From assembly GCA_027493445.1 (NCBI GenBank), contig JAOSKU010000001.1, positions 1,878,822 to 1,942,821 on the forward strand: 64,000 nt of DNA, written 5' to 3'. The notes beneath the pieces are model-generated. The model was not told the DNA's origin. It worked only from the letters and a program-made list of their open reading frames with translations, and searched no databases. Position numbers and translations under genes: made by a program. This document shows, one piece after another, positions 14,615-52,699 of this stretch. Every line of letters starts with the position of its first letter. The first letter of the stretch is position 1. The DNA is from Thermoleophilia bacterium. GTDB lineage: Bacteria; Actinomycetota; Thermoleophilia; RBG-16-64-13.

Positions 14615-15598
14615 TGCATTTCTGCACCTATTTTGACGAGAATTATCTTGTCCGCGGGCTTGCTCTGTACCGTTCGCTGCAAGTCCACTGCAATCCGTTC
14701 GTCCTCTGGGTCCTTTGCTTTGACGAAGCCACCTACGGGGCGCTGTCGAAACTGGCTCAACCTGACCTACGGCCTGTGTCCCTGGAGGAGTTCGGAGGAG
14801 GGCGACCAGCCATTGATGCACGCCAAGAGGGGGCGTAGCAGCGTCGAGTACTATTTCACATGCACGCCGTCATGGCCGCTCTATCTGTTGAAAGCGGAAC
14901 CCGGCATTGAGACGCTCTCGTACGTGGATGCGGATTACCTCTTCTATTCTTGCCTGCAGCCCGCACTCGACGAAGTCGGCGAACGCTCCATCGGCATCAT
15001 CCGTCACCGGTTTCCTCCTCGCTTGCGAAAACTTGAGGTCTACGGCGTTTTCAATGTGGGCCTGCTCGTGATGCGAAACGATGTTGCAGCTCGCGAGTGT
15101 CTGAATTGGTGGAGGGAACGCTGCCTTGAGTGGTGCTATGACCGCGTGGAGCCAGGACGTTTCGCCGATCAGAAGTATCTTGACGATTTTCCCCGGCGCT
15201 TTTCGAGCGTGGGGGTAATCGAGCACAAGGGAGTTGGGCTTGCGCCGTGGAACTGGATGAACTACCGAATCGCGCACGAGGGGAATGGGGGCACGATCGA
15301 TGGGCAACCTTTGATCGCATACCACTTCCATGGCCTTCGGCTCTACGGAGAGAGATTCTATGACGTGCGTCTTGCGCGATACGGGCGGATGCCGCACGAC
15401 CTGCGGCGCTGGATCTACGGGGGCTATGTGAACGCTCTGCACTCCGCGCAGACGTGGGCCGGGAACGCACTGCCGGAGAGCGCGAAGAGAGCTGCACCGA
15501 TTCGCGCGGGGCACGGACTTCATCGGCTGGCTATCGCGGCAGCCCGTCGCGACTTGGTGCTGATCCGGAGGGGTCGCCGCTCGCTAACGAGCCGCTGA
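14611..15598 (+). CDS. glycosyltransferase of the MHFCTYFDxNYLxRGLALYxSL family, frame broken between about 14790 and 14835
   Basis: Frame 1 (14611-14838) carries the conserved N-terminus and frame 2 carries the remainder (VEYYFTCTPSWPLYLLKAEPG...DADYLFY). The break lies in the GG/GGGGG runs at 14794-14795 or 14829-14833. Confidence 0.6.
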
Positions 15599-16750
15599 CG
15601 CTGAACGCCGATCGGTGCCAAAGACGGATGCGAACGCTGCCTGGAACGCATCCGCCATGGCCGCCTGAGAGGTCTGAGCGACCCGGGCAAGCCCCGCGGA
15701 ACCCAAACGCACGCGCTCGCTCGGCGAGGTTAGCAGCCGGCGTAGCGCGACAGCGAGCTGCGACCGATCATGCTCTCGAACGACAAGCCCTGTGACGCCG
15801 TCCACGACGAGGCCGCCTGCGACGGCGCCTACGGCGTCCGATGCTATGACCGGTAACGCCTGACACATGGCCTCGTTGATGGCGAGACCCCAGCACTCCT
15901 TGATACTCGGAGAGGTGACGGAAGGCATGACGAAGACGTCGGCGGCCGCATATACGACAGGCATGCTGGCGGGCGGTACACCGCCCACGAGCTTGAGCTC
16001 CACTCCGGTAGCGGCTGCCTGGGCGGCAAGCTGCGCCGCGAGAGGACCTGTCCCTACGATGGCCACCACAGGTTGAAGGTCACGAACTGAGGCGGCGGCG
16101 GCAACGAGGTCATCAAGCCCTTTCTGAGCGACCAAACGCGCAACTGCAAGTATTAGCGGCCGACTGTCGGCACCAGCCTGGCGGCGGAACGCCTGCACTG
16201 CCTCGTCACCTACTGGACGGCCGTAGAATTCGTTATCCACCGCGTGCTCGGCGATGAAGACGCGTTCGGGCTGGACACCACTTCTTACCAGAAATCGCCT
16301 AACATGGCTCCCGTAGACGACCAGTGCATCCGAGTGTCGGTATAGGGTCCGTGTGAGCGGCCACGTGGCGCGGTGAAACGGTGTTGACGGGTGAGTCCAA
16401 AGCCCGGTCCACAGCAGGAATGGCTTATTCCGCAAACGCGTGATCGAGAAGGCAGTTGCTAACTCCGCTCGTCCGCTTAGCTCCATCAGCACGAGATCGT
16501 AGTCGCGCTTGGCCAACGCCACGGTGAGGGAGGGGTTGAGGCTCAAGTGCCGGGAAACGCGGCGACCTCTGCAGAGCGTTGCGTCAAGGCTAGCCGCGAG
16601 GCTTCCCGCGCTCTTCGCCAGATGCGCTTGCCAATATTGCTGATCTCCTTCAGAAAGGCAGATTATCTCAGCTCCAACCTGCGCTCGGAGTCGCGCCAAC
16701 AACGGCGTCGTGTAGTGGGTTGGAAAATCAACAATTATGAGCGGCCGCAT
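15584..16750 (-). CDS. family 1 (GT4) glycosyltransferase
   Basis: FVMPSVTSPSIKECWGLAINEAMCQALPVIASDAVGA is the GT-B E-x7-E region. SD AGGAG before ATG 16750. The ORF is open to 16810. Confidence 0.75.
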   Translation of the reverse strand: MRPLIIVDFPTHYTTPLLARLRAQVGAEIICLSEGDQQYWQAHLAKSAGSLAASLDATLCRGRRVSRHLSLNPSLTVALAKRDYDLVLMELSGRAELATAFSITRLRNKPFLLWTGLWTHPSTPFHRATWPLTRTLYRHSDALVVYGSHVRRFLVRSGVQPERVFIAEHAVDNEFYGRPVGDEAVQAFRRQAGADSRPLILAVARLVAQKGLDDLVAAAASVRDLQPVVAIVGTGPLAAQLAAQAAATGVELKLVGGVPPASMPVVYAAADVFVMPSVTSPSIKECWGLAINEAMCQALPVIASDAVGAVAGGLVVDGVTGLVVREHDRSQLAVALRRLLTSPSERVRLGSAGLARVAQTSQAAMADAFQAAFASVFGTDRRSASAAR

Positions 16751-17048
16751 AGCTCCTGCCGGTTGTGCTGTCAATATACGGTAACGTCGCGCGAAGCCGT
16801 ACGATCCCATATGGACTGTCGAAGAGAGAGCAATGTATCGTACCAGGATACCGGATCCGGTTCGACTCAGAGTTCATTTCTCAACGAAGGAACTTCCCCT
16901 CGCTCGGGCGAAACCGGTCCATCTGCTGCCAGAATGGGAAGGATGTCAACCGCGAGGGCATGGGTGACATCGCGGCCAATGGCATCATCCACGTATAGTT
17001 GTGACTGACGAGCTCAAGGGCCAGGCTTCTTCCCCCCCTTTTGCTAGA

Positions 17049-17957
17049 ATGGCTCACGGGCGGCACGGAAGCGGGGTTGACCACGACGTGAAGGGTATCT
17101 TGTTGGCGGGAGGTTCGGGGACGAGGCTCTATCCCGCCACCCGAGTGATGAGCAAGCAGCTCATGCCGGTTTACGACAAGCCGATGGTCTATTATCCCCT
17201 CTCCACCTTGATGATGGCTGGCATCCGGGAGATCCTCATCATCTCGACGCCCCAGGATCTGCCGCGCTTCGAGAAGCTCCTTGGGGACGGTTCTTGGCTG
17301 GGCATTTCTCTGAGGTACCTGGCTCAGCCTCGACCGGAGGGACTGGCTCAGGCTTTCATCCTCGGAAAAGGCTTTCTCGAGGGCGGACCGGCCTGTCTCA
17401 TCTTGGGCGATAATATCTTCTACGGCCAGGGCCTCATAGGGCGCCTGGAGGCTGCCACGCAGCTCGGCAGTGGAGCCATTATCTTCGGCTACCGGGTGAA
17501 CGACCCGGAGCATTACGGCGTGGTGGAGCTCCGCGAGGATGGCAGCGCCATCAGCATCGAGGAGAAGCCGGAGCACCCACGCTCGAACTACGCGGTCCCA
17601 GGTCTGTACTTCTACGATCACGAGGTCTGTGACATTGTCGCCGGCCTTGCGCCCTCCGCTCGCGGAGAACTTGAGATCACCGACGTCAATCGGACCTACC
17701 TTGAGCGCGGGTGCCTGCGGGTGGATAAGATCGGCCGCGGCATCGCTTGGTTGGATACGGGTACCCATGACGCCCTGCTGAAGGCGTCCCACTTTATCCA
17801 GGTGATAGAGGAGCGCCAGGGCTTGAAGGTAGCCTGCCTGGAGGAGATCGCCTATCGCCAGGGATACATCTCGAGAGAGGAGCTGCAAGCCCAGGCCGCC
17901 GTCATGGGAGGCAACGCCTACGGCATGTACCTTGAGCGAGTGGCCGAGGAGGGCTAA
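17049..17957 (+). CDS. rfbA: glucose-1-phosphate thymidylyltransferase
   Basis: [54 protein letters not shown] is near-identical to the RmlA consensus. The start is uncertain, with candidates at 17001, 17049 and 17088. Confidence 0.85.
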
Positions 17958-18257
17958 TGTTGGTATTGGAAGTCTTCGAAACCTCAGCCGACTCCTGACA
18001 GCGAATCAATGACTCAGGACACAACCACGCCCTGTTGCAACTCGAGAGACAGTCGATCGGCCCAAGAGCGCTCGAAACGCTCGTCACCGCACCTGGTGAT
18101 CTTCATGAGGGATTCGCGTTCGCCAGGGATGACCTGGACTCGCTTGACGATCAATCGACCAGAACGCCCACTACATGCCTGTCGTGGATGGCACGCTTCG
18201 GCTGGCCTCCACCACGGCCCCGGCGAACGGGCTAGTCCGGCCCGGGCGACCGCCAGG

Positions 18258-19280
18258 ATGCCGCAACCCGACACCGCGGGAGCCAGCGAAACCCCTTACT
18301 GTCCAACGACCATCCTGGTGACTGGCGGCTGCGGCTTCATTGGCTCCAACTTCATCAGGCACATTCTCGCCAGCGATTCCACTGTCAGTGTGGTGAATCT
18401 GGACGCCCTCACCTATGCGGGCAACCCCGACAACCTGGCTGATGTCGAGGCCGGTTTCCCCTCACGCTATCGCTTTATCCATGGGGACATCCGCCACCAT
18501 GGGGCCGTCCGCAAAGCCATGGCGGACTGCGACACCGTGGTCCACTTTGCCGCGGAGAGCCACGTCGACCGCTCCATCGTCCATGCCCGTGACTTCATCA
18601 CCACCAACGTCGAGGGTACCTACGTGCTGCTCGAGGAGGCGCATCGGGCGGGCATTCAGCGTTTTCTCCACATCTCAACGGATGAGGTATACGGCTCCAC
18701 CGAATCCGGGTCGTTCAGCGAGGATGACCCTTTGGCCCCCTCCAGCCCCTACTCGGCTTCCAAAGCGGCTGCGGATCTCCTGGTGCTATCGTATGGCACT
18801 ACCTTCGACCTGCCTGTTCTCATAACCCGCAGCACCAACAACTTCGGACCCTACCAGTTCCCGGAAAAGCTGATCCCCTTGTTCATCACTAACTTGCTGG
18901 AAGGATCGGTCGTACCTTTGTACGGGGACGGCCTGAACGTGCGCGACTGGATCTACGTGCTGGACAACTGCCGGGCCCTCGATACGGTACTTCGTCTGGG
19001 TGCGGTCGGCGACGTCTACAACGTGGGGGCGGCTAATGAGGTCACCAACCATTACGTCACCACCTCACTCCTTGAGTCGCTCGGCGCTGGCGAGGAGATG
19101 GTCAACTACGTTGCGGACCGTCCCGGACACGACCGCCGCTACTCGGTCACGACTCACAAGGTCCGGGGGCTAGGCTGGGCGCCAACCCGCGACTTCCGCC
19201 AGGCTCTATCAGAGACCGTCTCTTGGTACGTCAACAATCCGCATTGGTGGAAAAGGATGAAGGAGCGCGTGGCTTTCTAG
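18258..19280 (+). CDS. rfbB: dTDP-glucose 4,6-dehydratase
   Basis: ILVTGGCGFIGSNFIRHIL...LTYAGN...DICD region and the YSASKAA catalytic motif. The ORF is open from 18009, but the upstream 83 codons are unlike RmlB. Confidence 0.85.
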   Translation: MPQPDTAGASETPYCPTTILVTGGCGFIGSNFIRHILASDSTVSVVNLDALTYAGNPDNLADVEAGFPSRYRFIHGDIRHHGAVRKAMADCDTVVHFAAESHVDRSIVHARDFITTNVEGTYVLLEEAHRAGIQRFLHISTDEVYGSTESGSFSEDDPLAPSSPYSASKAAADLLVLSYGTTFDLPVLITRSTNNFGPYQFPEKLIPLFITNLLEGSVVPLYGDGLNVRDWIYVLDNCRALDTVLRLGAVGDVYNVGAANEVTNHYVTTSLLESLGAGEEMVNYVADRPGHDRRYSVTTHKVRGLGWAPTRDFRQALSETVSWYVNNPHWWKRMKERVAF

Positions 19281-19341
19281 GGCTGGAGAACTCGCCAGGT
19301 CTTCCACAGAAGTGGCCGGGCAAAACTGGACAGCCCTTTAG

Positions 19342-19689
19342 GTGATACCGCTCCCAGGCAGACGACCAGGAGGAGTATGCACGATGCACAGAAGACCGAG
19401 ACGGAATCACTCCCCGGCGTTCAAGGCCAAGGTGGCCCTGGAAGCCATCAGGGGTGAAGAGCCCCTCATCGTGATCGCTGAGCGGTTCGACGTGCACCCC
19501 AACCAGATCACCAAGTGGAAGCGGCAGCTCCTCGAGGGCGCAGCGACTGTCTTCGGGGAGGAAGAGAAGGCCAGGGAGGAGGGGCCCAGCGTCGCCGAAC
19601 TGCACGCGAAGATCGGCGAGCTCACCATGGAGTTGGGTTTTTTGTCCGGTGCGCTCGGTCGCATGAGCGGCCCGAGCGCAAGGCGATGA
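19342..19689 (+). CDS. IS3-family transposase OrfA (HTH)
   Basis: See the mobile-element entry above. Confidence 0.7.
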   Translation: MIPLPGRRPGGVCTMHRRPRRNHSPAFKAKVALEAIRGEEPLIVIAERFDVHPNQITKWKRQLLEGAATVFGEEEKAREEGPSVAELHAKIGELTMELGFLSGALGRMSGPSARR

Positions 19690-20050
19690 TCGACCGGACC
19701 TATCCTCTGTCGATCACGAGGCGGGCCGAACTTCTTGATCTCTCCCGCTCGAGCGTCTGCTACCAGCCCGCTCCGACGAGCGAGAGCGACCTGACCTTGA
19801 TGGCCGCCATGGACGAGATCCACCTGACCTACCCTTTTTATGGGATGAGGCGGATCCGGAACGAGCTCCGTGACCGGGGCTTCGTGGTGGGGCGCGGGCA
19901 CGTGGCCACCCTCATGCGGAAGATGGGCGTCCAGGCGCTCTATCCCAAGCGCCGGCTGTCCCTGCCGCACCCGGGGCACAGGATCTACCCCTACCTCCTG
20001 CGGGGGAGGGACATCGCCTGCGCCGGGGAAGTATGGGCGGCCGACGTCGA
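19342..20050 (+). mobile_element. IS3-family insertion sequence, 5' portion only. It carries orfA, a -1 slippery site and the N-terminal third of orfB, and is truncated by group II intron insertion at 20050/20051
   Basis: OrfA (19342-19689) has the HTH with FKAKVALEAIRGEEPLIVIAERF. The heptamer TTTTTTG lies at 19636-19642. The OrfB frame gives ERKAMIDRTYPLSITRRAELLDLSRSSVCYQP...GEVWAADV and then loses homology before the DDE W..DITY motif. Confidence 0.7.
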
Positions 20051-21068
20051 GCGCCACGAGGCGCTCTCCTACCGAGTGGAGGTGAAAGGACTCCACCGGC
20101 GGGCTGTCGCAGCAGCCCGCGCGAAGCTGAGGGCAGCCTGACCCTGGAGACGCAGGGAAGGGTGGCAAGCAGCCCTGACAACGACGGGACGGGTCGGCAC
20201 TGCCAGACGGCCCGGGTCCGGCAAGCAAGGCGGAAAGGTGTACGTAAGAAACCAGTGCTATAAGACCCCTAAAGTCGCACCACCAGCTCGAACCTGGCGG
20301 ATCTGGGCTGGGAAGCGGCGCGTACCCGCCGAGGCGGGGAACTCCTCTGCCGGTTCACATGTCGCTGGCAGGGAGGCCACACTGAAGAACTGCGGCGTAG
20401 GTGTGGCAAGGCCGCAGGGGCATAGCTGGGCACCTCCTCCGCCGATCGGTAGAAGAGTGAACGTGGGAACCCTCCGACGTCGCCCTCCCGCCCCGTGGTG
20501 GTGGGCAGGCCCGTCGTCGGCCGATGGCGCCGGAGGGGGCGGAGCCTGCATAGTAGTCCGAGGACGGGAAAGCCGTCCACATGGCGAAGGCAGGCAGCGA
20601 GTTCGCAGCAGAAGGACTGAAAAACCAGGAGGTCGCCCGTGAACACGGGTGCACCGTGGCCGAGCCTCCACGAGGCGGAAGCCCGGGTACTGGAGATTCA
20701 GACCAAGCTGCACCGCAGGGCCGGCGAAGACGAGGGTCGCCGGTTCGATGATCTTTTCAACCTCGTCTATGACCCGGCCTTCCTGCTCATAGCCTGGAGG
20801 CGGGTCCGGGAGAACAAGGGCGCCCGCACTGCTGGCGTCGACGGTGAGTCCGCTTGCAGCATCGAGACTCGTCGCGGCGTCGAGGCCTTCCTTTGCGATC
20901 TGCGCGGCCAACTCAAGGCCCGCACGTTTTGGCCTCAGCCTGTACGGGAGCGACTGATTCCCAAACCGGGGTCGCGGAAGCGACGTCGTCTGGGCATCCC
21001 CACCGTGCGGGATCGAGTAGTGCAGGCCGCCTTCAAGCTGGTGCTCGAACCCATCTTCGAGGCGGATT
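20051..21068 (+). mobile_element. group II intron copy 1, 5' part. Ribozyme domains I-III are followed by the start of the domain IV intron-encoded protein (RT domains 0-2, CDS 20639-21068). It is interrupted by the second intron
   Basis: The RT fragment shows GVDG, RLIPKPGSRKRRRLGIPTVRDRVVQ and LEPIFE. About 590 nt upstream (20051-20640) is paralogous to 21069-21670. The 5' end GAGCGCCACGAGGCGCT resembles the GUGCG consensus. Confidence 0.65.
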
Positions 21069-22527
21069 GTGCGCCACGAGGCGCTGTTTCACCGGGGGAG
21101 GTGAAAGACCTCCCTGGCTGGCCGTCGCAGCGGCCGGTTGGAAGCTGACGGCAGCCCGAGCTTGGGAGTGCAAGCATCGGGTGGGAGCAGCCGTGACGAC
21201 GTAGCGGAGGCGTGGTACTGCCAGACACGCCGGCCGCGCTAGCAAGATGGGAAGGGATAGCGATCGCGAACGAGTGCCTGACGCCCCTTGATTCGAAAAC
21301 GACCCAGAACCTGGTGGATGCGGGTCGGGGGCAGCGCTGCGGCGGCCGTAGTTTGTGGCCGCTGCTCTTGGGTGCCGCTTACTAGGTGCGGCGCGCGAGA
21401 CCGTGGGGAAGGGCTGCGGCGTACCCACGGTGAGGCTGCAGGGGTAAAGCTCGGTCCCGCCCCCGTCAACCGGTGGGCAGTGAACGTGGGAACCCTCCCG
21501 GTATCGCCCTCCCCGAAGGCCAGACAGGTCGTCGGCGGGCAGGCGCACTGTCAGCTGATGGTGCCGGGAGGGGGCAGAGCCCTCGTAGTAGTCGGAGCCC
21601 GGGAGAGCCGGGCACAGGGCGAAGGAGGGCAGCAGACTTGGCACGCGGTCCGGTCGCAAGGAGGTCGGCGGTGAATACCGTCGCGCCGTGGCCGTCGGTC
21701 TTGGAGGCCGAAGCCCGGGTACTTCATGTCCAGACCAAGTTCCACAAGTGGGCAGCAACCGATCAGACTCAGCAGTTCCACGATCTGTTCAACCTCGTTG
21801 GTGACCGGGCGACCCTGGTGGTGGCCTGGCAGCGGATACGGACGAATCGTGGCTCCCGCACGGCTGGAGTGGATGGAATCACCCGCCGCGACGTCGAGCA
21901 ACGCGTCGGCGTTGAGCGGTTTTTGGATGGCATCCGCTTGTCCTTGAAAGACGGGTCGTATCGGCCCCAACCGGTCCGTGAGCGCATGATCCCCAAGGCT
22001 GGCGGCAAGCTACGTCGGCTGGGGATCGCCACGCTGCGCGACCGGGTCGTGCAGATGGCGCTGAAGCTCGTGCTGGAACCGATCTTCGAGCCAGACCAGT
22101 ACCGGTCGAGCTACGCCTACCGGCCGGGACGCCGCGCTCAGGACGCCGTCGCCGAGATTGTTCACTTGGTGAACAACGGCTATGAGTGGGTGGTCGAGGG
22201 TGATGTGGAGGCCTGCTTCGATTCCATCGAGCATCGCTTGGTGGTGAAGCAGTTGCGTACTCGCCTCACCGACCATCGAGTCCTGGGGCTGTGCAAGGCG
22301 TTCCTGAAGGCCGGGGTGCTCACTGAACTGGGGCGGCTCCAACGAACGGTCACCGGCACGCCGCAGGGGGCATTATCTGCCCACTGTTTGCTAACCTGGC
22401 GCTGCACGCCGCTCTCGACGAGCACTTTGCCTCGGTGTGGGCGGCGCAGTCGAGGTATCGCAACCAGCGCACCTACCTGCGCTCCAAGGGGCAGGCCACC
22501 TATCGACTCATCCGCTATGCGGACTTA
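21069..22527 (+). mobile_element. group II intron copy 2, 5' part. It starts GTGCGCC inside the RT gene of copy 1. Its own RT (CDS 21671-22527, RT0-RT5) has a frame slip at the G run 22366-22370 and is broken in the YADD motif by an IS
   Basis: The RT shows GVDG, RLGIATLRDRVVQ, SYAYRPGRRAQDAV, ACFDSIEH and GTPQG, and after a one-base frame correction GIICPLFANLALH...RYAD, before the sequence is replaced. SD AAGGAGG precedes GTG 21671. Confidence 0.7.
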
Positions 22528-23940
22528 TGTTGAGCTCAACATAAGTCCGTGGGGGTATCCATTTAACCGGAGTAATCGAGATCGGCAGTTCTCCACGGGC
22601 GGTTCGCTGGAGGGCGCTCCAAGCTCGGGGGATGCCCGCGCGCCCGGGGTGGCGCAGGCGGTACTGCCCGGGGCCGCGGGCTGGCGATGAGGTCCTGGTA
22701 GCGCACCGGGTCGTGGCCGACGGCGAGATCGAGCAGCCGGTAGAACAGCATCCCGCTTGAGATTCACGGCGGCCAGTTCCTCGTCGGGCACCTTGATGCC
22801 CTTCTCGTAGGTGTTTTGGTCGAGTTCACAGCGCACCCGCAGTCCGGAGCGGGTCACGGTGGCCGCGATCAGGTTGACGATGACTTCGTGACTGATCAGA
22901 GGTTTGCCCCGCCAGTTCTGGGTGATGAACGAAAACAGGCGGTGCTCGATCCGGTTCCACTTGCTGGTGCCCGGGGAAGGTGAGAGACCCCGATCGTGAG
23001 CCCCGTCTCGTTGGCCAACTTCTGCAGTTCGACCTTCCACAGCCGGAGACGGTAGCCGTTGCTTCCCCCGCAGTCGGCGGTGATGAGGAGTCGGTGGGCG
23101 TCGGGGTACCTCTCTTTACCCATCGAGTGCCACCAGCGGAGAATGCTCTGCACGGCGAAAGCCGCGGTATCGTGGTCGGTGCCCACGCTGACCCAGCCCA
23201 GGTTGCCCGCCAGATCGTAGATCCCATAGGGGTTCGCCTTTCCCAACTCGGGGACCATGAAATCATGCACGCGCACCGCTTCTGGATCCCCCTTCGGACG
23301 CAGTTCTCGGCCCCCGTTCTTGAAGTCGCCCACCAGCTCCTTCTTCTTGGTGTCCACGGAGATGACCGGGTCGTTGCGGGCTTGGTACTCCTTGACCTTC
23401 TCGTTTAGGTGTCGAAACTGAGCGTCTCGATCGGGATGGGACGAGCCTTCCCGGGTCTTGCGGTTCCCCTGGAGGCTATAGCCCATGTCGTGCAGCAGTT
23501 CGGCGACCATGCGATGGCTCGTCTGGTGCCCCATCCGCGTGAGCTCATCGGCCAGGCGGCGAACGCTCTTTAAGGTCCAGCGCAAGGGCGACTCCGGATC
23601 GCCTCGGGTCTCCGGTTCCACCAGGCGCTCCAGGTCGTCGCGAAGGGTCGGATCCGTGTCCACGGTGCGCTTGCGTCCGCCGCCCTCTCGCCGGATGCGC
23701 CCGCGCGGCGCGAGGTCCGGATGGGCAAGCTCCCGAGATCCCGCCGTGATCGCCCGCCGCGAAACCCCCGTCACCCGGGCCACGAGCGTGTTCCCGCCCC
23801 GGCCGGCGGCCAACGCTTCCGCCGCGGCCACCAGGCGTCGGCTACGCTCATCTAGGAAGGGGGCCAAAAGCTCGAATCGTTCTTTGATGCCGGCCTCTCC
23901 ACCCATGCGGTGAAGCGTAGCACGGTCGGGCCGGTTTCGC
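22522..23940 (-). mobile_element. ISAzo13-family insertion sequence, truncated at the transposase C-terminal end. The transposase CDS is 22525-23906 with a frame slip at 22973-22976
   Basis: N-terminal HTH region, then VSHLPPGTSKWNRIEHRLFSFITQNWRGKPL, which is the ISAzo13 hallmark (YPPGTSKWNKIEHRLF). The expected distal FHGEWNY motif is absent. Confidence 0.65.
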
Positions 23941-44204: not shown

Positions 44205-44310
44205 GCGCAGGGCAAAGATGGCCCCCTGGAACGGGCTGGCGGAATCGCTGCGATCTCGACCGGCCCCCGGGGTTCCCTTCCAGTCGCCATGGCGGGCCCA
44301 CGAGACATAT

Positions 44311-44338
44311 TTGGCAGCAAAGCTTTCAGTGCTAGCAT
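44311..44338 (+). promoter_or_regulatory. sigma70-like promoter candidate. TTGGCA, 16-nt spacer, TAGCAT
   Basis: It lies about 40 nt upstream of the AGGAGG RBS of the RHH antitoxin gene. Confidence 0.3.
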
Positions 44339-44380
44339 GATGGTGGCCCCAGCCATCCGGAGGAGGCGCACCTGGCCGTC

Positions 44381-44563
44381 TTGACAATACGCGGCCTGCC
44401 TGAAGAGGTGCGCGGCCTCCTGCGCCTGCGGGTCGCCAAAGCGGGCCGCAGTACGGAGGCGGAGGTCCGCGCCATCCTGGTGGAGGCCAAGATCCCCGCC
44501 TACACGGCCGATGGCGCCTGGCTATCCCTGGACACGGGCATCCGCGTGAAGACCATCCGGTGA
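44381..44563 (+). CDS. ribbon-helix-helix antitoxin (FitA/VapB, Arc/MetJ-like), with no cognate toxin gene adjacent
   Basis: (M)TIRGLPEEVRGLLRLRVAKAGRSTEAEVRAIL matches the LTIRNLDDEL..RLR.RAA.HGRSMEEEVR.IL consensus. TTG start. Confidence 0.55.
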   Translation: MTIRGLPEEVRGLLRLRVAKAGRSTEAEVRAILVEAKIPAYTADGAWLSLDTGIRVKTIR

Positions 44564-44593
44564 GACAGGCGAAATCGCGCATCCACCATCGGA

Positions 44594-47365
44594 TCAGCTT
44601 GGTTCGCCCGTCACCGTCACACTTCCCTTCTGGATCCAGCCCGAGTCCAGCCCGCCGTCGTCTTCGGCGCGCAGCCACACGGTCTTCTGACCGAGGAAGG
44701 TGCTCTTGAAAGTCATGGACACCGCGAGCGTGAGGGGGGTGCCCGACTTGACCATGGAGCTCTGAGCGAGATCGATGGCCACCCGCTCGTTCTCCAGAGT
44801 ACCGGTTGTGCCCAAGGTGCCGCTCAACCAGGCCGTGTTGGCCGCGTTTCGCAGAAAGATCTTGTTGCGGTTCTCGTCTAGGTAGATGTACACCCCGCCG
44901 ACCCCGGTGATCGCCGTGCCCACGATCATCCGCATCCGCTTCAGGTTGGTCGCCCCGTTGGGATCGGCAAAGACGGCGGTGAAGATCTGGGCCTGCCCGG
45001 CCGGTAGATCTGCGAGCACGGCCGGATCCAAGGAGACGACCGCGGGCGCGCCCGTGGGCGCGTCGGCGGCAAAGGAGGCCGCGATGGTGTGATCGGCGCC
45101 GATGTCGGCGAAGTCGTAGGTGCCGATCGGCCCCACCGAGGCTCCGTCCACCACCACGTCGGAGATGTGGTAGCCGGCGTCGGGGGTGATGGTGAAGGTC
45201 AGGGAGGCCCCCGGGTTCACCGTCTGGGCGGTCGCCGGGGATATCTGACCGCCGGGGCCGGCGGAGGGGGTGATGGTGTAGGTGGTCGCGGCGGCGGCAA
45301 AGGAGGCCGCGATGGTGTGATCGGCGCCGATGTCGGCGAAGTCGTAGGTGCCGACCGGCCCCACCGAGGCTCCGTCCACCACCACGTCGGAGATGTGGTA
45401 GCCAGCGTCGGGGGTGATGGTGAAGGTCAGGGAGGCCCCCGGGTTCACCGTCTGGGCGGTCGCCGGGGATATCTGACCGCCGGGGCCGGCGGAGGGGGTG
45501 ATGGTGTAGGTGGTCGCGGCGGGCGCCGCGGTCACCGTCACACTTCCCTTCTGGATCCAGCCCGAGTCCAGCCCGCCGTCGTCTTCGGCGCGCAGCCACA
45601 CGGTCTTCTGACCGAGGAAGGTGCTCTTGAAAGTCATGGACACCGCGAGCGTGAGGGTGGTGCCCGACTTGACCATGGAGCTCTGAGCGAGATCGATGGC
45701 CACCCGCTCGTTCTCCAGAGTACCGGTTGTGCCCAAGGTGCCGCTCAACCAGGCCGTGTTGGCCGCGTTTCGCAGAAAGATCTTGTTGCGGTTCTCGTCT
45801 AGGTAGATGTACACCCCGCCGACCCCGGTGATCGCCGTGCCCACGATCATCCGCATCCGCTTCAGGTTGGTCGCCCCGTTGGGATCGGCAAAGACGGCGG
45901 TGAAGATCTGGGCCTGCCCGGCCGGTAGATCTGCGAGCACGGCCGGATCCAAGGAGACGACCGCGGGCGCGCCCGTGGGCGCGTCGGCGGCAAAGGAGGC
46001 CGCGATGGTGTGATCGGCGCCGATGTCGGCGAAGTCGTAGGTGCCGATCGGCCCCACCGAGGCTCCGTCCACCACCACGTCGGAGATGTGGTAGCCGGCG
46101 TCGGGGGTGATGGTGAAGGTCAGGGAGGCCCCCGGGTTCACCGTCTGGGCGGTCGCCGGGGATATCTGACCGCCGGGGCCGGCGGAGGGGGTGATGGTGT
46201 AGGTGGTCGCGGCGGCGGCAAAGGAGGCCGCGATGGTGTGATCGGCGCCGATGTCGGCGAAGTCGTAGGTGCCGACCGGCCCCACCGAGGCTCCGTCCAC
46301 CACCACGTCGGAGATGTGGTAGCCAGCGTCGGGGGTGATGGTGAAGGTCAGGGAGGCCCCCGGGTTCACCGTCTGGGCGGTCGCCGGGGATATCTGACCG
46401 CCGGGGCCGGCGGAGGGGGTGATGGTGTAGGTGGTGCCCGTGACCTGGACCACGTAGGTGTCGCCGCCCCCCATGTCAGCGTAGTCGCTGGGGGACACCT
46501 CTACGAGCACCGTTCCCGCCGCGTCCATGACGCGGAGGCGGTCCAAGGGAAAGAGCAGGCTCTGGCAATCGACCACCGCTGCCCCAGCGCTCTCAGTGGC
46601 TGAGGCCGTCTTTCCGCCCGAGGCGGCCTCCACCAATCCCCCGGCGGGAACTCCCTGGACCGTGACGTGATAGTCGGTGCGGGCCTCGAGCCAATCTGCG
46701 TCACCCGCCTTGGTGCTCGTCCCCCATCCGACCCGGTCAACAGCAACTTCGTTGTGGAGCCCTGCATCGACGACACCGTCGAGGCTGGAGCCGAAGCGCG
46801 CCACGATATGCCCGGTCTCGGTCTTGAGCAGCCTCGCGTGAGTGTAGACGTCCGCCGTCATGGGTTCAGCGCTGGACACGCCCAAATCGGTGGACGTGCC
46901 GCCGGAGTAACGGCCGACACTCCAAGGCCCCCCGGGAGTGTTCACGTCGTATTCTAGGCGGTACCCGGCCCAGTTGTTCGAGCCTGACTTCGCGGTGGCA
47001 TGCGCCAGATACAGGTAGATATTCCCGCCATTCGCGGGGTCGGTATTCCGAGTCCGCGCGGTCACCACTCGCGCGCCCGTCTGCCCGAGACGGGCCACCT
47101 TGTCTGATGTAGTTGTGTTGTGGACCAGCGCACCCCCCGTGACTGCGAAACCCGTGAGTGATCTGATCGCCTGGTAGTTGAGGAGGGTGTCGCTGTCGAA
47201 ATCATCGAGCTCGATGAGTCCGGATGAGAGACGGGTCATCGTGGCCGTGGCTGCAAGCGCCGGAGTCGCCGCGACTCCGATGGCCGCCAGCAGCACGATC
47301 ACCAGAACCACGGCCACCTGGCCGGAGTGCCGCCAAGTGCGCCGAAAAGCCGCTGCCAGTGTCAT
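44594..47365 (-). CDS. secreted cell-surface protein. It has four divergent InlB-B-repeat (PF18998-like) domains and two copies of an unknown ~140-aa domain
   Basis: Signal peptide MTLAAAFRRTWRHSGQVAVVLVIVLLAAIGVAATPALA. Four repeats of TYTITPSAGPGGQISPATAQTVNPGASLTFTITPDAGYHISDVVVDGASVGP.GTYDFADIGADHTIAASF. SD GAGGAGG before ATG 47365. The ORF is open to 47398. Confidence 0.7.
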   Translation of the reverse strand: MTLAAAFRRTWRHSGQVAVVLVIVLLAAIGVAATPALAATATMTRLSSGLIELDDFDSDTLLNYQAIRSLTGFAVTGGALVHNTTTSDKVARLGQTGARVVTARTRNTDPANGGNIYLYLAHATAKSGSNNWAGYRLEYDVNTPGGPWSVGRYSGGTSTDLGVSSAEPMTADVYTHARLLKTETGHIVARFGSSLDGVVDAGLHNEVAVDRVGWGTSTKAGDADWLEARTDYHVTVQGVPAGGLVEAASGGKTASATESAGAAVVDCQSLLFPLDRLRVMDAAGTVLVEVSPSDYADMGGGDTYVVQVTGTTYTITPSAGPGGQISPATAQTVNPGASLTFTITPDAGYHISDVVVDGASVGPVGTYDFADIGADHTIAASFAAAATTYTITPSAGPGGQISPATAQTVNPGASLTFTITPDAGYHISDVVVDGASVGPIGTYDFADIGADHTIAASFAADAPTGAPAVVSLDPAVLADLPAGQAQIFTAVFADPNGATNLKRMRMIVGTAITGVGGVYIYLDENRNKIFLRNAANTAWLSGTLGTTGTLENERVAIDLAQSSMVKSGTTLTLAVSMTFKSTFLGQKTVWLRAEDDGGLDSGWIQKGSVTVTAAPAATTYTITPSAGPGGQISPATAQTVNPGASLTFTITPDAGYHISDVVVDGASVGPVGTYDFADIGADHTIAASFAAAATTYTITPSAGPGGQISPATAQTVNPGASLTFTITPDAGYHISDVVVDGASVGPIGTYDFADIGADHTIAASFAADAPTGAPAVVSLDPAVLADLPAGQAQIFTAVFADPNGATNLKRMRMIVGTAITGVGGVYIYLDENRNKIFLRNAANTAWLSGTLGTTGTLENERVAIDLAQSSMVKSGTPLTLAVSMTFKSTFLGQKTVWLRAEDDGGLDSGWIQKGSVTVTGEPS
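44612..46447. repeat. direct tandem duplication of 2 x 921 bp, near-identical (one substitution seen, at 44733 vs 45654)
   Basis: 44886-45092 and 45807-46013 translate identically on the opposite strand. Copy boundaries lie at GTCACCGTCACACTTCCC, about 44612 and 45533. Confidence 0.85.
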
Positions 47366-47666
47366 CGAGCCACCTCCTCGGAACAGGGAGCCTTGCATGC
47401 GCCCATCCTGTTCTCGGTTTCCCAGCGCCCACCCCAGCCGGTGGCCGCGAGAGACCGAACCGTGCGAAGCGCTTCAAACGCGCTCTCGACAGATCCTCGC
47501 CGTACCTTTTCTTATACCATAGAGGAGCACAGGCCGGATGGGAAACTCGAACTCTTACCTTTCGCCTCCACCCCACCTTTACTTCCCCGCGAAGCAGTAC
47601 TAGCATGGCGGGTAGGGCGTCGATGCTCCGTAGTCCCGCACCTGGACCTGGGAAGGAGGTGCTGCG

Positions 47667-47942
47667 GTGTCGGAAGAAGAGCTCGGGGCGGAACAGGAGA
47701 TCGGGGTTGTCACCCACTACTTCAGCAGGATAGGCGTGGGAGCCATCCGGCTGATAGGCGGGACTCTGAGGCTGGGTGACTCCATCCACATCCTCGGCCA
47801 CACCACCGACCTCGAACAGGTGGTGGAGTCCATGGAGATCGAGCACCAGCTGGTGACCGAGGCGCAGACCGGCCAGGAAGTGGGCATCCGAGTCTTGGAC
47901 CACGTACGCGACCACGACAAGGTCTTCAAGGTGATCGAGTAG
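47667..47942 (+). CDS. translation-elongation-factor-like small beta-barrel protein (EF-Tu domain-2-like)
   Basis: EIGVVTHYFSRIGVGAIRLIGGTLRLGDSIHILGHTTD...VESMEIEHQLV resembles the 90-aa elongation-factor-like proteins. Confidence 0.45.
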   Translation: MSEEELGAEQEIGVVTHYFSRIGVGAIRLIGGTLRLGDSIHILGHTTDLEQVVESMEIEHQLVTEAQTGQEVGIRVLDHVRDHDKVFKVIE

Positions 47943-47984
47943 CCGCCAGGGCGGCGACAGCGGCCGGCCTAGCGGGCGCAGCGC

Positions 47985-50354
47985 TTGCCCGCGGGGGTGG
48001 GCACTCGCTACAGTGAGCGGGTGACCACCTCTTCCTCAGTATCCCGCTCCACCCGCGGGCGCCTCGGTCTGGGCCTGGCCGCCTTCCTGGCGGCCGTAGA
48101 GCTGGGCCTGGCCTTCCGCGCCGGGTCGTACTTCCCCCGTTCGTGGTTGCCCCTGGCCCTGGCGGTCGCCGCGGTCGCGTTGGTGCTGGTGGGCTTCGGA
48201 CCGCGCCCTCACTTCAGCCGAGGGCAGGCTTTGCTGCTGGGGGCGTTCGGTCTGCAGGCTGTCTGGACCGGCGTGAGCCTGGCCTGGGCCGGCAGCTCCA
48301 CCAACGCCTGGCAGGAAGCGGACCGGACCCTGCTCTACGTGATCGGTGTGGGTTTGGCCGCCCTCGCCGTGCGCTGGGCCGGCAGCCGGGGTCTACGCTG
48401 GCTGGCGGCTCTGCTCTTGGGAGCCATCGGCGTGGTGGCCCTGGCCACGCTCGGGCGGCTGGCCGCAGGAAGCGAGCTCGTACGGCTCTTCACGGGCGGG
48501 CGCCTGCAGTACCCGGTGACCTACTGGAACGGCCTGGCCGCCCTGCTCATGATGGGTTTCTGGCTGGCGCTGGGGCTGAGCACCGCTCCCCGGCGGGCGT
48601 GGTGGCGGCAGGCCCTGCTCCTGGGGACAGCGGTGGCCCTGGCCGAGGTGGCGCTGCTGCCTCAGTCCCGGGGAGCCCTCTGGAGCTTCTTCCTGGTTGC
48701 GCCCTGGCTGCTGGTACTGAGCGCCCACCGCTTCCGGGCGGTGGCCAACCTGGGCTTCGTCTGCCTCACGGTGGCGCTGGCCTGGCCCAAGCTGATCGGA
48801 GTGTTCCAGCCGGCCCGGCTGGCGGCTCGAGGAGGGGGCGCGCAGGCGGGCGCAGCCGGGGTCGTTCCCCTGCCTACGGCGGTGGAACAGGCGTTGCTGG
48901 CGTTGCTGCTTTCGGTGCTGGCCGCGGCGGCCTTCGGAGCAGTGAGCACGCTGGTGGAGGCCCGCCTCTCCCCCCTCGAGCGCCGCTGGGCGCGGGCCAT
49001 CGGCGCCGGACTGGTGATGATGGCCCTGGTGGTGGCCGGCTTCGGGGTGGTGGGTCTGCAGCGGGCCAAGGGCGACCTGAGCGAACTAGCTCGCGACACG
49101 TGGAGTCAGGTGGCCGCAGACCGAGGGCCGGGGGGAGAGACGAGCTCCCGTTTCAGCGACGTAGGGCTGAATGGCCGCCTCGAGCAGTGGCGTATCGCTT
49201 GGCGGGCCTTCGAGGAGCAGCCCCTGCTGGGCTTGGGCGCCCAGAACTACGAGTTCTACTTCTTCCAGCACCGCACCACGGGGTTGGCGGTGCGCCAGCC
49301 GCACAGCCAACCGATGCAGCTGCTGTCGGAGCTGGGACTGCCGGGGGCGGCCCTGTGGCTGCTCTTCGTGGGCGGCGTGCTGATCCGCGGGACGCGTGTG
49401 CGCTTCCGGATGACCCGGGGAGTGAACCGGGCGGCGGTCACGGCCGCTCTGCTGGCGGTGGGCTCTTGGTTCATCCACTCCTCGGCCGACTGGCTCTGGC
49501 AGCTGGGGGGAGTCTCCTGGCCGGCGGTGCTCTTGCTGGGCGGACTGCTGGCGGTGAGGAGCGGGGAGACGGAGACCGGGACGCGCGAAGCGAGCGGGGG
49601 ACGCAGAGCCGGCGGCCGCGGGGCCGCGGAGGGGAGCGGAGCGGGCGGGAGCGGAGCGGGCGGGCGGATACTACAGGGCGTGGTGATCACGACGGCGGCG
49701 GCGCTGCTGGTGTCGGGCTCGGTCTCTTACCTTTCGCTGCGCTACTTGGCTCTGGCCTCGGCGGGCAATGGCACGCCCGAACAGGCACTCGCGGCGACTC
49801 ACACCGCCGGACAGCTGGATCCATTCACACCTGAGGGAGCGATGGCCGAGGCCCAGGTGTATCGGGAGGCGGCCCGGGCAGCGGCCGCCTCATCGGGTCC
49901 CGCCCGGGCCTGGGCGGCTCTGGACAACCTGGCCCTGGCAGCCGCCGCCCGGCAACGGGCGGCCGAACGCGAGCCACTGAGCTGGTTCATCGCCTACCAG
50001 ACCGGCCTCGCCCTGCTTGAGTACCGGGAGGCGGCCATCGAGGCGGGCGCACTCGACGCCCCAGGGGATGGGCCGCTCGACTCCGGCTCCGGCGAGGCGC
50101 CGGCCGCGGGGGCTTGGTCGTTGCTCCGCGGCCTCGCCCGATCCCCAGCCGCCGGTCCGGGAGAAGCCCCGGGCTCGCTGGCCTCCACGCAGGACCGCCG
50201 CGAGACGGTGGCGCGCTTCCGGGCGCTCACCCAACGGGAACTGACCGACCTGGCCCTCTCCTACCTGGAGCAGGCCGAAGGACTGAACCCCAGGGAGCAG
50301 CTGGTGAGCCGGGCCGTCGAGCGCAGCCGTGGAGGGGAGCCGAGTGAGCACTGA
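47985..50354 (+). CDS. O-antigen ligase family (Wzy_C) polytopic membrane protein with a ~300-aa Ala-rich, TPR-like C-terminal extension
   Basis: Wzy_C hallmark NYEFYFFQHRTTGLAVRQPHSQPMQLLSELGLPGAALWLL. About 10 TM helices. Confidence 0.65.
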   Translation: MPAGVGTRYSERVTTSSSVSRSTRGRLGLGLAAFLAAVELGLAFRAGSYFPRSWLPLALAVAAVALVLVGFGPRPHFSRGQALLLGAFGLQAVWTGVSLAWAGSSTNAWQEADRTLLYVIGVGLAALAVRWAGSRGLRWLAALLLGAIGVVALATLGRLAAGSELVRLFTGGRLQYPVTYWNGLAALLMMGFWLALGLSTAPRRAWWRQALLLGTAVALAEVALLPQSRGALWSFFLVAPWLLVLSAHRFRAVANLGFVCLTVALAWPKLIGVFQPARLAARGGGAQAGAAGVVPLPTAVEQALLALLLSVLAAAAFGAVSTLVEARLSPLERRWARAIGAGLVMMALVVAGFGVVGLQRAKGDLSELARDTWSQVAADRGPGGETSSRFSDVGLNGRLEQWRIAWRAFEEQPLLGLGAQNYEFYFFQHRTTGLAVRQPHSQPMQLLSELGLPGAALWLLFVGGVLIRGTRVRFRMTRGVNRAAVTAALLAVGSWFIHSSADWLWQLGGVSWPAVLLLGGLLAVRSGETETGTREASGGRRAGGRGAAEGSGAGGSGAGGRILQGVVITTAAALLVSGSVSYLSLRYLALASAGNGTPEQALAATHTAGQLDPFTPEGAMAEAQVYREAARAAAASSGPARAWAALDNLALAAAARQRAAEREPLSWFIAYQTGLALLEYREAAIEAGALDAPGDGPLDSGSGEAPAAGAWSLLRGLARSPAAGPGEAPGSLASTQDRRETVARFRALTQRELTDLALSYLEQAEGLNPREQLVSRAVERSRGGEPSEH

Positions 50355-50385
50355 AGAGTCCGGCCCCTCCGGGCAGGCTGACCCC

Positions 50386-51306
50386 ATGACCGCCCGCGCA
50401 CCTGACACCGGCGCACCACCGCCACCCAGCACCGCGGACCTCCCGGCCGCCCTGGAACTGCCTCAGCCGACCGCCCTGGTCGGCGTGGCCGGGACGCCGC
50501 CGGCCGGCGCGCCGTGGCCCACGGTCGCGCCGCCCGCACGCCTGGCCCCCGGAATCGCGGACCGCCTGCGCGACAGGCGCCCGGCCCTATTCCTCGATTA
50601 CGACGGCACCCTCACCCCCATCGTGTCCCGTCCCGAGCTGGCCCGACTGGCCCCCGAGACTCGGGAGGCGGTGCGCGCCCTGGCCACCGCCGGACATCCG
50701 GTGGCCGTGGTCAGCGGACGAGATCTCGACGACGTGCGCGCTCTGGTCAACCTGCCCCAGCTGGTCTACGCGGGCAGCCACGGGTTCGACATCGCCGGGC
50801 CGGGCGGCCTGCGTCTGCAGCACCCCGAAGCCCTGCGGCTCCTGCCCCACCTGGACGGCGCCCAGGATCTCCTCGCCGCCCGCCTGGCCGGCGTGCCTGG
50901 CGTACAGATCGAGCGCAAGCGTTTCAGCCTGGCGGTCCACTACCGGCAGGTCGCACCCGGGAACATACCGGCCCTGGAGCAGGCCGTGGCCGAAGCCGCC
51001 CACCCCGGCCTGCGCCGCGCCGGGGGCAAGATGGTCTTCGAGCTGCAACCGGCCCTCGACTGGCACAAGGGCCGAGCGGTGGAGTGGGTGCTCGATTCCC
51101 TGGACCTGAACCGTCCCCAGATCCTGCCCCTCTACCTGGGTGACGACCTCACCGACGAGGACGCGTTCCGCGCCCTGCAAGGGCGCGGCCTGGGCATCGT
51201 GGTACGGGACCAACCGCCCCGGCCCACGGCCGCCGACTACGCCTTGGCCGATCCCGCGGAGGTGCGTCTGTTCCTCGAGGCGCTCGCCCGGGTCTGGCCG
51301 GGGTAG
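50386..51306 (+). CDS. otsB: trehalose-6-phosphate phosphatase (HAD-IIB)
   Basis: LFLDYDGTLTPIV, VAVVSGRDLDDV and LGDDLTDEDAF. The ORF is open from 50329 and overlaps the upstream gene. Confidence 0.7.
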   Translation: MTARAPDTGAPPPPSTADLPAALELPQPTALVGVAGTPPAGAPWPTVAPPARLAPGIADRLRDRRPALFLDYDGTLTPIVSRPELARLAPETREAVRALATAGHPVAVVSGRDLDDVRALVNLPQLVYAGSHGFDIAGPGGLRLQHPEALRLLPHLDGAQDLLAARLAGVPGVQIERKRFSLAVHYRQVAPGNIPALEQAVAEAAHPGLRRAGGKMVFELQPALDWHKGRAVEWVLDSLDLNRPQILPLYLGDDLTDEDAFRALQGRGLGIVVRDQPPRPTAADYALADPAEVRLFLEALARVWPG

Positions 51307-51321
51307 TCAAGAGCCGGGCGC

Positions 51322-52699
51322 TCAGGCCACCGGTGCTCTCCCCGCCAACTGCGCCCCCAGCCGCTTGGCCAGGGCCATGATCGTCAGCATGGGCGGCATT
51401 CCCGGGGCTACCGGCAACACGCCGGCATCGCACACGAAGAGGTTGGCCACCTCTGTCTGCAGGTCGCGGTCGACCACCACCCCGATGGCCGCCGTCCCCC
51501 GGATGCGCCCCCTGCACCGCGCTGACCTGGATCGAATGGGGATCGGCCCCCGCGCGCACGAGGATCTCTCGCGCCAGCCCTGAGCCGCGCTCCAGCCGCG
51601 CTCGGTCGGCAGGGGTCGGCCGCTTGCTGACCGAGCCATCGGCCAGCACGCGGCCGCTGGGATCGTCGGCTATCTTGGTCATGATTCCCAGCAGCCGTCC
51701 GGGGCGCAGGCGAAGACCGGCCGTCCCGGCCTCGATCAAACGCACCCGCCGGGGCACGTTCACGTACGGCGAGAGGATGAACCCCTCCTCCCGGAACTGG
51801 CGCGCCACCAGCGCCATGGCCGGCTCGTGCAGCTGATTGAGGCCCCGGGTGACGCCGTAGGTGTTGATCAGGAGGTCCATGAACAGACCCTCCCCGGCCC
51901 GCGCCAACCCCGAGCGGAGCAAGATCGCGGGCGTGCCCAGCCCCCCGGCGGCCACGATCACCGTCGACGCCCCCAAGATCACCTCCCCCTCCGGCCCGGT
52001 GGCCACCACCCCGACGGCCGAACCCTGCCGCACGACCACCCGCTCCACCTTGTGGCGGTAGAGGACGCGGGCGCCCCAGCGCTGGGCCTGAAGCAGGTAG
52101 CGGGCCGCGGTCCACTTGGCGTCGTGGGCGCAGCCCAGGGTGCACACGCCGCAGGCCTTGCAGGCGCCTGCGTCGATGACCTTGGGCATGGGCTCCAGGA
52201 CCACGCCCACCTCGGCCGCCGCCGCCCGCAGGGTTTGCGAGGCCTCCGAGAGCAGGCTTTCGGCGATGGGGGCCGCCCCGGTCTCGGATTCGACCTCGGC
52301 GAGCTCGGCCTGCAGATCGAGACCCAGCCCGGAGAGCTCCCTCTCCAGACAGCGGGTCATGTTGCCGCAGGCCACTACGGTGGAGCCCCCGGCGGCCAGG
52401 GCCCGCCACAGGATCACGCCCTCCCTCGACCTCGCCGGCATATGAAGCACCGGGCTGGCGTCGTAGATGCGGGCGGCATCGGCGAAAGTGCCCAGGCGGA
52501 ACGCCGGCGGCCCCCCCTCCACTACCAGGACATCGGCACCCCGGCGGGCCAGCTCCCGGGCCAGAGTGGCTCCTCCGGCCCCGGAGCCCACCACCACATA
52601 CTCGTGCTTCTCCGCACGCAGCCCAACCACCTCCCGCGGTGGACGCCAGCGATATTTCGAGCTTCTTCGCATAAGAAGTGTAGTTGTTCGCCCGCCCAT
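51322..52699 (-). CDS. GMC-family FAD-dependent oxidoreductase, frame broken at C run 51496-51500
   Basis: N-terminal [32 protein letters not shown], and C-terminal [13 protein letters not shown]...[11 protein letters not shown]...MALA in the second frame. The [11 protein letters not shown] insert is unusual. Confidence 0.6.

Follow-up and report, generated by a model that had tools for sequence, protein, structure and literature searches.

Consensus errors at short G/C runs as the very probable source of most frame breaks in a 64-kb stretch of a Thermoleophilia genome

Most of the frame breaks in the window, i.e. the whole 64-kb stretch of DNA that was analysed, are best regarded as consensus errors, since the genes are intact in short-read assemblies of this strain. 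Miscalled G/C runs very probably explain all breaks except the one in the RES toxin gene; the break in an ISAzo13 transposase is probably of the same kind, and the reverse transcriptase (RT) and the IS copy are in addition true relics. The first-pass annotation had listed seven frame breaks, all of which are present: codon-usage scoring changes frame in all seven genes, and the eight homopolymers named were found without exception at their positions. Its view that these breaks are artefacts and not pseudogenes is proven for the putative glycosyltransferase (GT), RT, livH, padR and GMC oxidoreductase genes, is likely although unproven for the ISAzo13 transposase, and was refuted for the RES toxin. 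Furthermore, the list of seven is incomplete, as it lacks a frame break at 31641–31645 and three non-coding errors.

Comparison with contigs of the same strain

The window was compared with Logan contigs of its own strain, which come from at least nine further public sequencing runs (named runs: SRR11288141, SRR11288142, SRR25580095, SRR25580096, SRR25580097, SRR25626492 and SRR8536199). We take these contigs to be short-read assemblies, given their exact agreement with each other and with the window across runs and their breaks at repeats. They cover 57,466 nt of the 64-kb window (seven named runs), and over this length we found 0 substitutions and nine indel sites, which affect G/C only. At seven of the nine sites bases are missing from the window, hence there is a deletion bias. 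Sorted by true run length, errors amount to 1 in 17.9k at length 1, 1 in 367 at length 4, 2 of 119 (1.7%) at length 5, 4 of 23 (17%) at length 6 and one of four at length 7. G/C runs of at least 4 nt make up 4.0% of the window bases but contain eight of the nine proven error sites, and the association of error sites with G/C runs is far beyond chance expectation.

Six of the nine proven errors are coding and result in apparent frameshifts (327-aa hypothetical protein, RT, M20 peptidase, livH, padR and GMC oxidoreductase); the other three are non-coding (21327–21331, 41351–41354 and 54497–54501). Intact genes were called directly on the short-read contigs at the error sites, where each coding site regains a full-length protein that is collinear with its family; in the restored coding frames the Pfam match crosses the junction unbroken for RT, livH, PadR and GMC. 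The unbroken protein versions are found in two to six short-read contigs apiece, and the broken forms MCZ7663153.1, MCZ7663157.1, MCZ7663168.1, MCZ7663171.1, MCZ7663172.1 and MCZ7663178.1 are confined to one NCBI contig of 4,601,372 nt. The expectation that annotation would be misled by such breaks was borne out, as GenBank lists the fragments as separate proteins. At the sites 31641, 41351 and 41531 the DNA-level alignment comes from one run (SRR11288141) each. A second strain in ENA, which is 98–99% identical, also has 7 G in the GMC gene and 6 C at 54497; the ENA contigs of this strain carry SPAdes-style node names. Exact patterns of the GMC junction, in which the length of the G run was left variable, gave no match in GTDB representative contigs or JGI metagenome contigs.

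Genes affected by the miscalled runs

As had been proposed, a single-base edit yields a continuous ORF in all seven listed genes, but the true change in the GMC gene comprises two bases. The repaired proteins were also said to be collinear with their families, which is valid for the six that match Pfam profiles unbroken after repair, namely RVT_1, DDE_Tnp_ISAZ013 (positions 1–300 of 308), BPD_transp_2 (3–269 of 269), PadR (1–74 of 75), RES (1–155 of 157) and GMC_oxred_N together with GMC_oxred_C; the 327-aa protein has no Pfam match. Sites are given below on the plus strand unless stated otherwise.

At 14794–14795 the window has GG instead of a true single G, and this inserted base splits the gene of the 327-aa hypothetical protein (14614–15598). 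Contigs L007/L025, L008 and L009 from three runs read TTCGAGGAGG and are otherwise identical to the window over 19.8 kb. Hence, of the two break sites considered for this gene, the GG is the correct one; at GGGGG 14829–14833 the short-read contigs equal the window. Since a true single G was called GG, the error is not a classic homopolymer undercall, and the statement that all breaks are situated at homopolymers does not apply here. A one-base insertion at this site was rejected as repair, because it leads to the wrong frame and a deletion is required. The unbroken 327-aa protein is encoded on four Logan contigs, and its only representative in GenBank is a fragment of 260 aa (MCZ7663153.1). 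The label glycosyltransferase found no support, as the 327-aa protein gave no sequence match in Pfam, NCBIfam or PDB.

The error that had been overlooked in a coding region is located at 31641–31645, where the window has GGGGG and the true run in contig L003 comprises 6 G. As a result, an M20 peptidase gene (31592–32760) is out of frame in its first 16 codons. The intact gene in L003 matches Peptidase_M20 and M20_dimer, and the break at codon ~17 is outside the Pfam match. Four Logan contigs encode the unbroken 389-aa peptidase, and GenBank contains an N-terminally shortened version of 369 aa (MCZ7663168.1). For livH and padR the first-pass annotation had named the correct runs and their one-base shortage. 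GGGGG at 36380–36384 has 6 G in L003 and L004, and its error splits the livH-type permease gene (36134–37023), whose unbroken 296-aa product is found in five Logan contigs; in GenBank it is represented by two pieces of 86 and 208 aa (MCZ7663171.1 and MCZ7663172.1, respectively), which come from the 4.6-Mb contig only. Likewise, GGGG at 41531–41534 is GGGGG in L001, and its error splits padR (41385–41797). The unbroken 137-aa PadR occurs in six Logan contigs, and an 86-aa C-terminal piece is listed in GenBank (MCZ7663178.1). Upstream of padR, the same contig L001 has CCCCC where the window has CCCC in an intergenic position (41351–41354).

In the GMC-family oxidoreductase gene (51322–52699, minus strand), the window has CCCCC at 51496–51500 (GGGGG on the gene strand) instead of a true run of seven, i.e. 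two bases are missing. The run has 7 G in L019 and L020 from the same strain and in L010 from a relative. This run had been described as either one base long or two bases short, and it is the latter version, with five called and seven true, that is correct. The exact 459-aa protein repaired by two additional G is present in two Logan contigs. Finally, at 54497–54501 the window has CCCCC and the true run 6 C according to L011, L012, L013 and L015 (four runs); the ENA contigs L010 and L014 have 6 C as well. This site is intergenic, 3 nt upstream from where a minus-strand gene (53760–54494) starts.

Truncated mobile elements and the RES toxin gene

The group II intron-type RT gene (21671–22533) breaks at 22366–22370, where the window has GGGGG and the true run 6 G, as found in L016, L017 and L018 from three runs; the run had indeed been called one G short. 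After repair the RT stops after YAD at ~22528, which results in 287 aa compared to 502–509 aa in full-length members of the cluster, so that the truncation is judged from the sequence to be genuine even after indel correction. The repaired 287-aa form is found in four Logan contigs, and the unrepaired form of 339 aa with a false C-terminal tail only in GenBank (MCZ7663157.1). An Rfam search of the whole window at the gathering threshold gave no RNA family, and specifically none of the domains of a group II intron. At 21327–21331, upstream of the RT ORF, the window has GGGGG where L016 and L017 have GGGG, i.e. one base was inserted. A 153-aa gene call spans this site in L016, which we take to be spurious.

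The ISAzo13-family transposase relic (22748–23967) is truncated at its 3' end at 22748 with the loss of the last 21 codons, and even after indel correction this copy is regarded as a genuine relic. Its frame breaks at 22973–22976 on the minus strand, where the window has GGGG (CCCC on the gene strand). Short-read contigs end at 22579 and 23938, and the comparison is therefore with a collapsed multi-copy consensus, which has a run of five; the proposed one-base shortage agrees with this consensus, and the status as an error is probable only. Compared to the collapsed IS contigs L021–L024 (23964/23967–22748), the relic shows two differences, the run at 22973 and a SNP at 23140. Intact 408-aa transposase copies (P0017 and P0018) are located on the same 4.6-Mb contig, and the two 100%-identical 408-aa copies as well as L021–L024 have CCCCC in frame at the 22973 site. 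The protein collection searched contains neither the fragment of 336 aa nor the repaired version of 460 aa. Taken together, the break is probably an assembly error. It may also be a true copy-specific deletion, an explanation which we regard as possible but on the unlikely side: with its truncation and a private SNP the relic would already be non-functional and free to decay, its run can be compared with the multi-copy consensus alone, and both protein forms are absent from the collection. However, the same undercall from five to four G/C is proven twice in the window (41351 and 41531), and a rough estimate gives, in view of the single substitution, more expected artefacts than expected real indels in the 1.2 kb.

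Programmed frameshifting was rejected for this transposase, because the intact copies consist of a single 408-aa ORF without overlapping frames. All matches listed in the homologue search (at least 120) are likewise single ORFs, nearly all of ~400–410 aa. The programmed -1 frameshifting known from the IS3 family has its counterpart elsewhere in the window, in an IS3-like orfA/orfB pair (19342–20141) with a -1 overlap at GGGTTTTTTG. Short reads confirm the change of frame in this pair, which does not belong to the seven listed breaks.

The case of the RES toxin gene (43744–44193) is different. It had been ascribed to a sequencing artefact, specifically to a missing T in TTT 44138–44140. However, the short-read contigs L005 and L006 carry the same deletion and are 100% identical to the window over 42920–44639, and the 149-aa RES form is on record in three Logan contigs. 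What was lost is a G adjacent to G44136, within 44134–44140, where a relative has CTGGCT and the window CCGCT. This relative (L010, 92–98% identical and 92% locally), in which alone an intact version was seen, has a RES protein of 153 aa, reads CTGGCTTTC and ends FAQIEIGEPQTFITDLRLIKE, so that the shifted frame appears to be derived. The frameshift swaps the last ~20 residues, which results in 149 aa instead of 153 aa, and the Pfam RES profile is covered at positions 1–145 of 157 in the window form and at 1–155 of 157 in L010. Repaired forms were absent from the protein collection searched. Hence, this one-nucleotide deletion is real. It resembles slipped-strand frameshift pseudogenes in that one G of a GG pair was lost, the C-terminus was changed and the change is reproducible across runs; among the seven listed genes this applies to RES only, and it does not apply to GT, RT, M20, livH, padR or GMC. 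Instead of simple decay, the C-terminal frameshift might have been selected because it weakens or inactivates the toxin in an Xre-RES pair of which the antitoxin was kept, and we find this idea rather improbable. If true, it would be a natural example of toxin disarmament.

Origin and consequences of the errors

Could all breaks be genuine frameshift pseudogenes in a metagenome-assembled genome (MAG) strain that differs from the sequenced runs and is decaying by slipped-strand mutation? The RES frameshift is real, truly degraded mobile elements abound in the region from 19.3 to 27.4 kb, and true slippage mutations likewise prefer homopolymers. Nevertheless, this possibility is very remote, because real divergence should lead to more substitutions than indels and 57.5 kb contain nine indels and 0 substitutions. 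Moreover, the error rate climbs with run length to 17–25%, three sites are intergenic, and the broken proteins are confined to one long-read contig. It is scarcely credible, too, that the run-length differences reflect phase variation within the population, by which genes are switched on and off at G/C tracts. Such tracts resemble contingency loci, and some of the affected genes are plausibly dispensable, for example the surface-polysaccharide cluster protein and the PadR regulator. However, tracts in contingency loci usually comprise 8 nt or more, and those in the window just 4–7 nt; furthermore, the "off" length occurs in no short-read contig of any run, and intergenic and housekeeping-type sites are affected equally.

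Consensus errors in the deposited sequence offer the far better explanation. The window is part of a 4.6-Mb single-contig Thermoleophilia MAG in GenBank (locus tags M5U22_), the consensus of which miscounts short G/C homopolymers and usually loses one base. The platform was probably of the nanopore type, with long reads and absent or ineffective short-read polishing, as we infer only from contig size and error profile. The genes behind the six coding errors are intact in the organism, and the tenth difference, in the ISAzo13 copy, would probably represent the same kind of error. The RES deletion, in turn, is a real one-base loss fixed in the strain, and the RT and the ISAzo13 copy are genuine truncated relics regardless of the indels, in a mobile-element graveyard at 19.3–27.4 kb.

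Homopolymer consensus error is a known kind of artefact, and gene-splitting homopolymer indels are a documented residual error of ONT assemblies without short-read polishing (PMC9262707). The window shares with the errors of ONT R9.4.1-era consensus sequences and MAGs (Sereika et al. 2022, PMC9262707; IDEEL test) the differences in homopolymer length only, the deletion bias, the run-length dependence, the split genes and the multi-megabase single-contig MAG. In contrast, its errors occur already at runs of 5–7 nt and in G/C only, one of them is a single G read as GG, and the platform is inferred here.

For the deposited MAG this amounts to approximately one consensus indel per 6 kb, with six to seven of the ~60 genes in the window broken or mis-started. 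Extrapolated, several hundred genes of the MAG would be affected if the rate holds genome-wide. The association with homopolymers by itself cannot tell error from mutation, since the RES break looked alike and yet is real. Hence, the value of the result is one of quality control: the fragments are present in GenBank and nr, and from there they can bias the counting of pseudogenes, the analysis of pangenomes and the alignment of protein families.

Frame breaks compared with same-strain assemblies

Same-strain contigs were recovered from public assemblies via exact-protein look-ups of intact neighbouring genes (Logan SRR11288141, SRR11288142, SRR25580095, SRR25580096, SRR25580097, SRR25626492 and SRR8536199; SRR8536198 supplied one IS contig). 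They cover positions 1-19824, 20168-22579, 23938-25978, 27360-44639, 46406-53611 and 53621-62323 of the window, in total 57,466 nt, over which we found 0 substitutions and 9 indel sites, every one in a G or C run. A lone mismatch 3 bases from the end of one contig (L013) was set aside, since other contigs do not share it. The first-pass annotation had read seven frame breaks, all at homopolymers, as probable sequencing artefacts. This interpretation was largely right, with five proven assembly errors and one probable (the ISAzo13 transposase), but it failed for the RES toxin, a real mutation, and was off in places on position and direction. Moreover, four errors were missed, one of them gene-damaging.

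The eight named homopolymers are present, and codon usage, scored as log-odds with the long ORFs of the window as training set, points to a change of frame within one strand at every one of the seven genes. As predicted, single-base edits yield continuous ORFs, and six repaired proteins match their own Pfam profile without interruption at the junction: the reverse transcriptase, RT (RVT_N and RVT_1), the ISAzo13 transposase (DDE_Tnp_ISAZ013, 1-300/308), the products of livH (BPD_transp_2, 3-269/269) and padR (PadR, 1-74/75), RES (1-155/157) and the GMC oxidoreductase (GMC_oxred_N and GMC_oxred_C). The 327-aa 'glycosyltransferase' had no match in Pfam, NCBIfam or a PDB sequence search; hence, this label is unverified.

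The RT gene (22366-22370) and livH (36380-36384) are indeed one G short (5 G, true 6 G), as is padR (41531-41534; 4 G, true 5 G). For the 327-aa protein, of the two sites proposed, the break is at GG 14794-14795 and not at GGGGG 14829-14833; the true sequence is a single G, and one base must be removed, not added. For the GMC oxidoreductase (51496-51500; 5 C, true 7 C), two short was the correct alternative and one long was not. The missed sites are located upstream of the RT ORF (21327-21331; 5 G, true 4 G), in an M20 peptidase gene (31641-31645; 5 G, true 6 G) and in intergenic sequence (41351-41354; 4 C, true 5 C; and 54497-54501; 5 C, true 6 C). Short-read contigs encode the intact 327-aa protein (four contigs), LivH (296 aa, five), PadR (137 aa, six), M20 peptidase (389 aa, four) and GMC oxidoreductase (459 aa, two), and an RT without frameshift (287 aa, four).

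Error profile and its cause

When the G/C runs of the 57.5 kb covered by the comparison were binned by true length, 1 of ~17,900 was miscalled at length 1, 1 of 367 at length 4, 2 of 119 at length 5, 4 of 23 at length 6, 1 of 4 at length 7 and 0 of 1 at length 8, while A/T runs of at least 5 gave 0 of 12. Deletions make up 7 of the 9 error sites. The association with runs is not chance, because G/C runs of at least 4 hold just 4.0% of the window bases. The absence of substitutions together with nine length-dependent run miscalls is the pattern expected of a long-read consensus that was polished poorly or not at all, and not that of strain divergence. Leftover homopolymer indels that split gene calls are a documented shortcoming of nanopore assemblies that lack short-read polishing (PMC9262707). 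A metagenome yielding a single 4.6-Mb contig implies long reads; the sequencing platform itself we infer.

True run-length polymorphism coexists with these artefacts. A second, 98-99% identical strain was found in an ENA assembly with SPAdes-style node names (contigs L010 and L014), and it differs from the window strain by real indels at 54701 (GGG vs GGGG) and 62318; the same-strain Logan contigs side with the window.

The RES frameshift and mobile-element relics

Over 42920-44639, contigs L005 (SRR25580096) and L006 (SRR25626492) show 100% identity with the window, and their gene calls give the same 149-aa RES protein, a form found in three Logan contigs; both repaired 153-aa forms are absent from the searched protein collection. 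In the second strain, RES is intact at 153 aa, with CTGCATCTGGCTTTC (L010) in place of the window's CTGCATCCGCTTTC; hence, one G beside G44136 was lost in the window lineage, and not a T in TTT 44138-44140 as had been proposed. Against the RES profile, the frameshifted protein aligns over 1-145/157 and that of the relative over 1-155/157. The C-terminal change is real and fixed.

Collapsed IS contigs (L021-L024, 1.3 kb) align to the window ISAzo13 copy from 23964/23967 down to 22748 and differ solely by a SNP at 23140 and CCCCC vs CCCC at 22973-22976, a comparison with a multi-copy consensus that cannot show this copy's own run length. Because two other runs in the window show a proven undercall from 5 to 4, it is fairly probable that the four-base run is an artefact. 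Since homology ends at 22748, this copy is without the last 21 codons (FHGEWNYAIAPSEPPIGSFIS), which are present in two intact 408-aa copies (P0017, P0018) on the same 4.6-Mb contig; it is a relic whatever its run length.

The RT frameshift is an artefact, yet the truncation of the gene is genuine: the repaired protein ends ...YRLIRYADLC*, and full-length proteins of its cluster have 502-509 aa. At 20639-22533, two truncated group II intron-type RT genes stand in succession, a 169-aa fragment (20639-21148) ending inside the finger motifs and the 287-aa RT (21671-22533) cut after YAD, which suggests nested or serial mobile-element insertions; Rfam gave no intron domain there at threshold. A perfect 24-nt palindrome, ACTTATGTTGAGCTCAACATAAGT (~22524-22547), marks the point where the RT breaks off, and ~200 nt of unassigned sequence separate it from the truncated ISAzo13 end. 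All short-read contigs here end at 22579, so another repeat may begin there. A truncated IS3-family element (19342-20141) carries orfA with HTH_Tnp_1 and orfB with HTH_21 only, without integrase core; the two share a -1 frame overlap at GGGTTTTTTG (19635-19644), which looks like a programmed-frameshift slippery site, and this frame change, located at a T6 run, is real because short-read contig L007 confirms it. On the minus strand follow a second ISAzo13-like transposase, present as an N-terminal fragment (25520-25888; N-terminal sequence similar by eye to the ISAzo13 transposase, no transposase match in Pfam), and an apparently intact IS5/DUF772-DDE_Tnp_1 transposase (26099-27268). Short-read assemblies fragment across 19.3-27.4 kb, a mobile-element graveyard.

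Other regions and the deposited proteins

In the gene for a 934-aa surface-type protein with Flg_new_2 / InlB B-repeat domains (44594-47398), 921 nt are duplicated in tandem almost perfectly (44610-44909 and 45531-45830 agree at 100%). The short-read contigs of this strain end at both edges (44639, 46406); hence, its copy number rests solely on the long-read assembly. All short-read contigs also end at the very GC-rich, Ala/Pro-coding 53611-53637, where L010, a scaffold with Ns elsewhere, is ~66 nt longer; this variable or hard-to-sequence linker is beyond short-read checking in the window. G+C content increases from 55-61% in the cluster for polysaccharide biosynthesis (1-19 kb; DegT, GT4, Wzy_C, Polysacc_synt) to 68-74% past 48 kb, and horizontal transfer may have brought in this low-GC surface-polysaccharide island.

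The broken products are themselves deposited in GenBank, only on the 4,601,372-nt contig 'MAG: Thermoleophilia bacterium' (locus tags M5U22_), to which an intact neighbour gene product (MCZ7663177.1) links the window. LivH is present there in two pieces, MCZ7663171.1 (86 aa) and MCZ7663172.1 (208 aa), and PadR as the 86-aa MCZ7663178.1; MCZ7663157.1 (339 aa) is the RT carrying a false tail, MCZ7663168.1 (369 aa) is the N-terminally shortened M20 peptidase, and MCZ7663153.1 (260 aa) corresponds to the hypothetical protein. This class of artefact is already well known and holds no biological novelty; its practical use is as a warning that the deposited MAG and its nr proteins carry about one indel per 6 kb.
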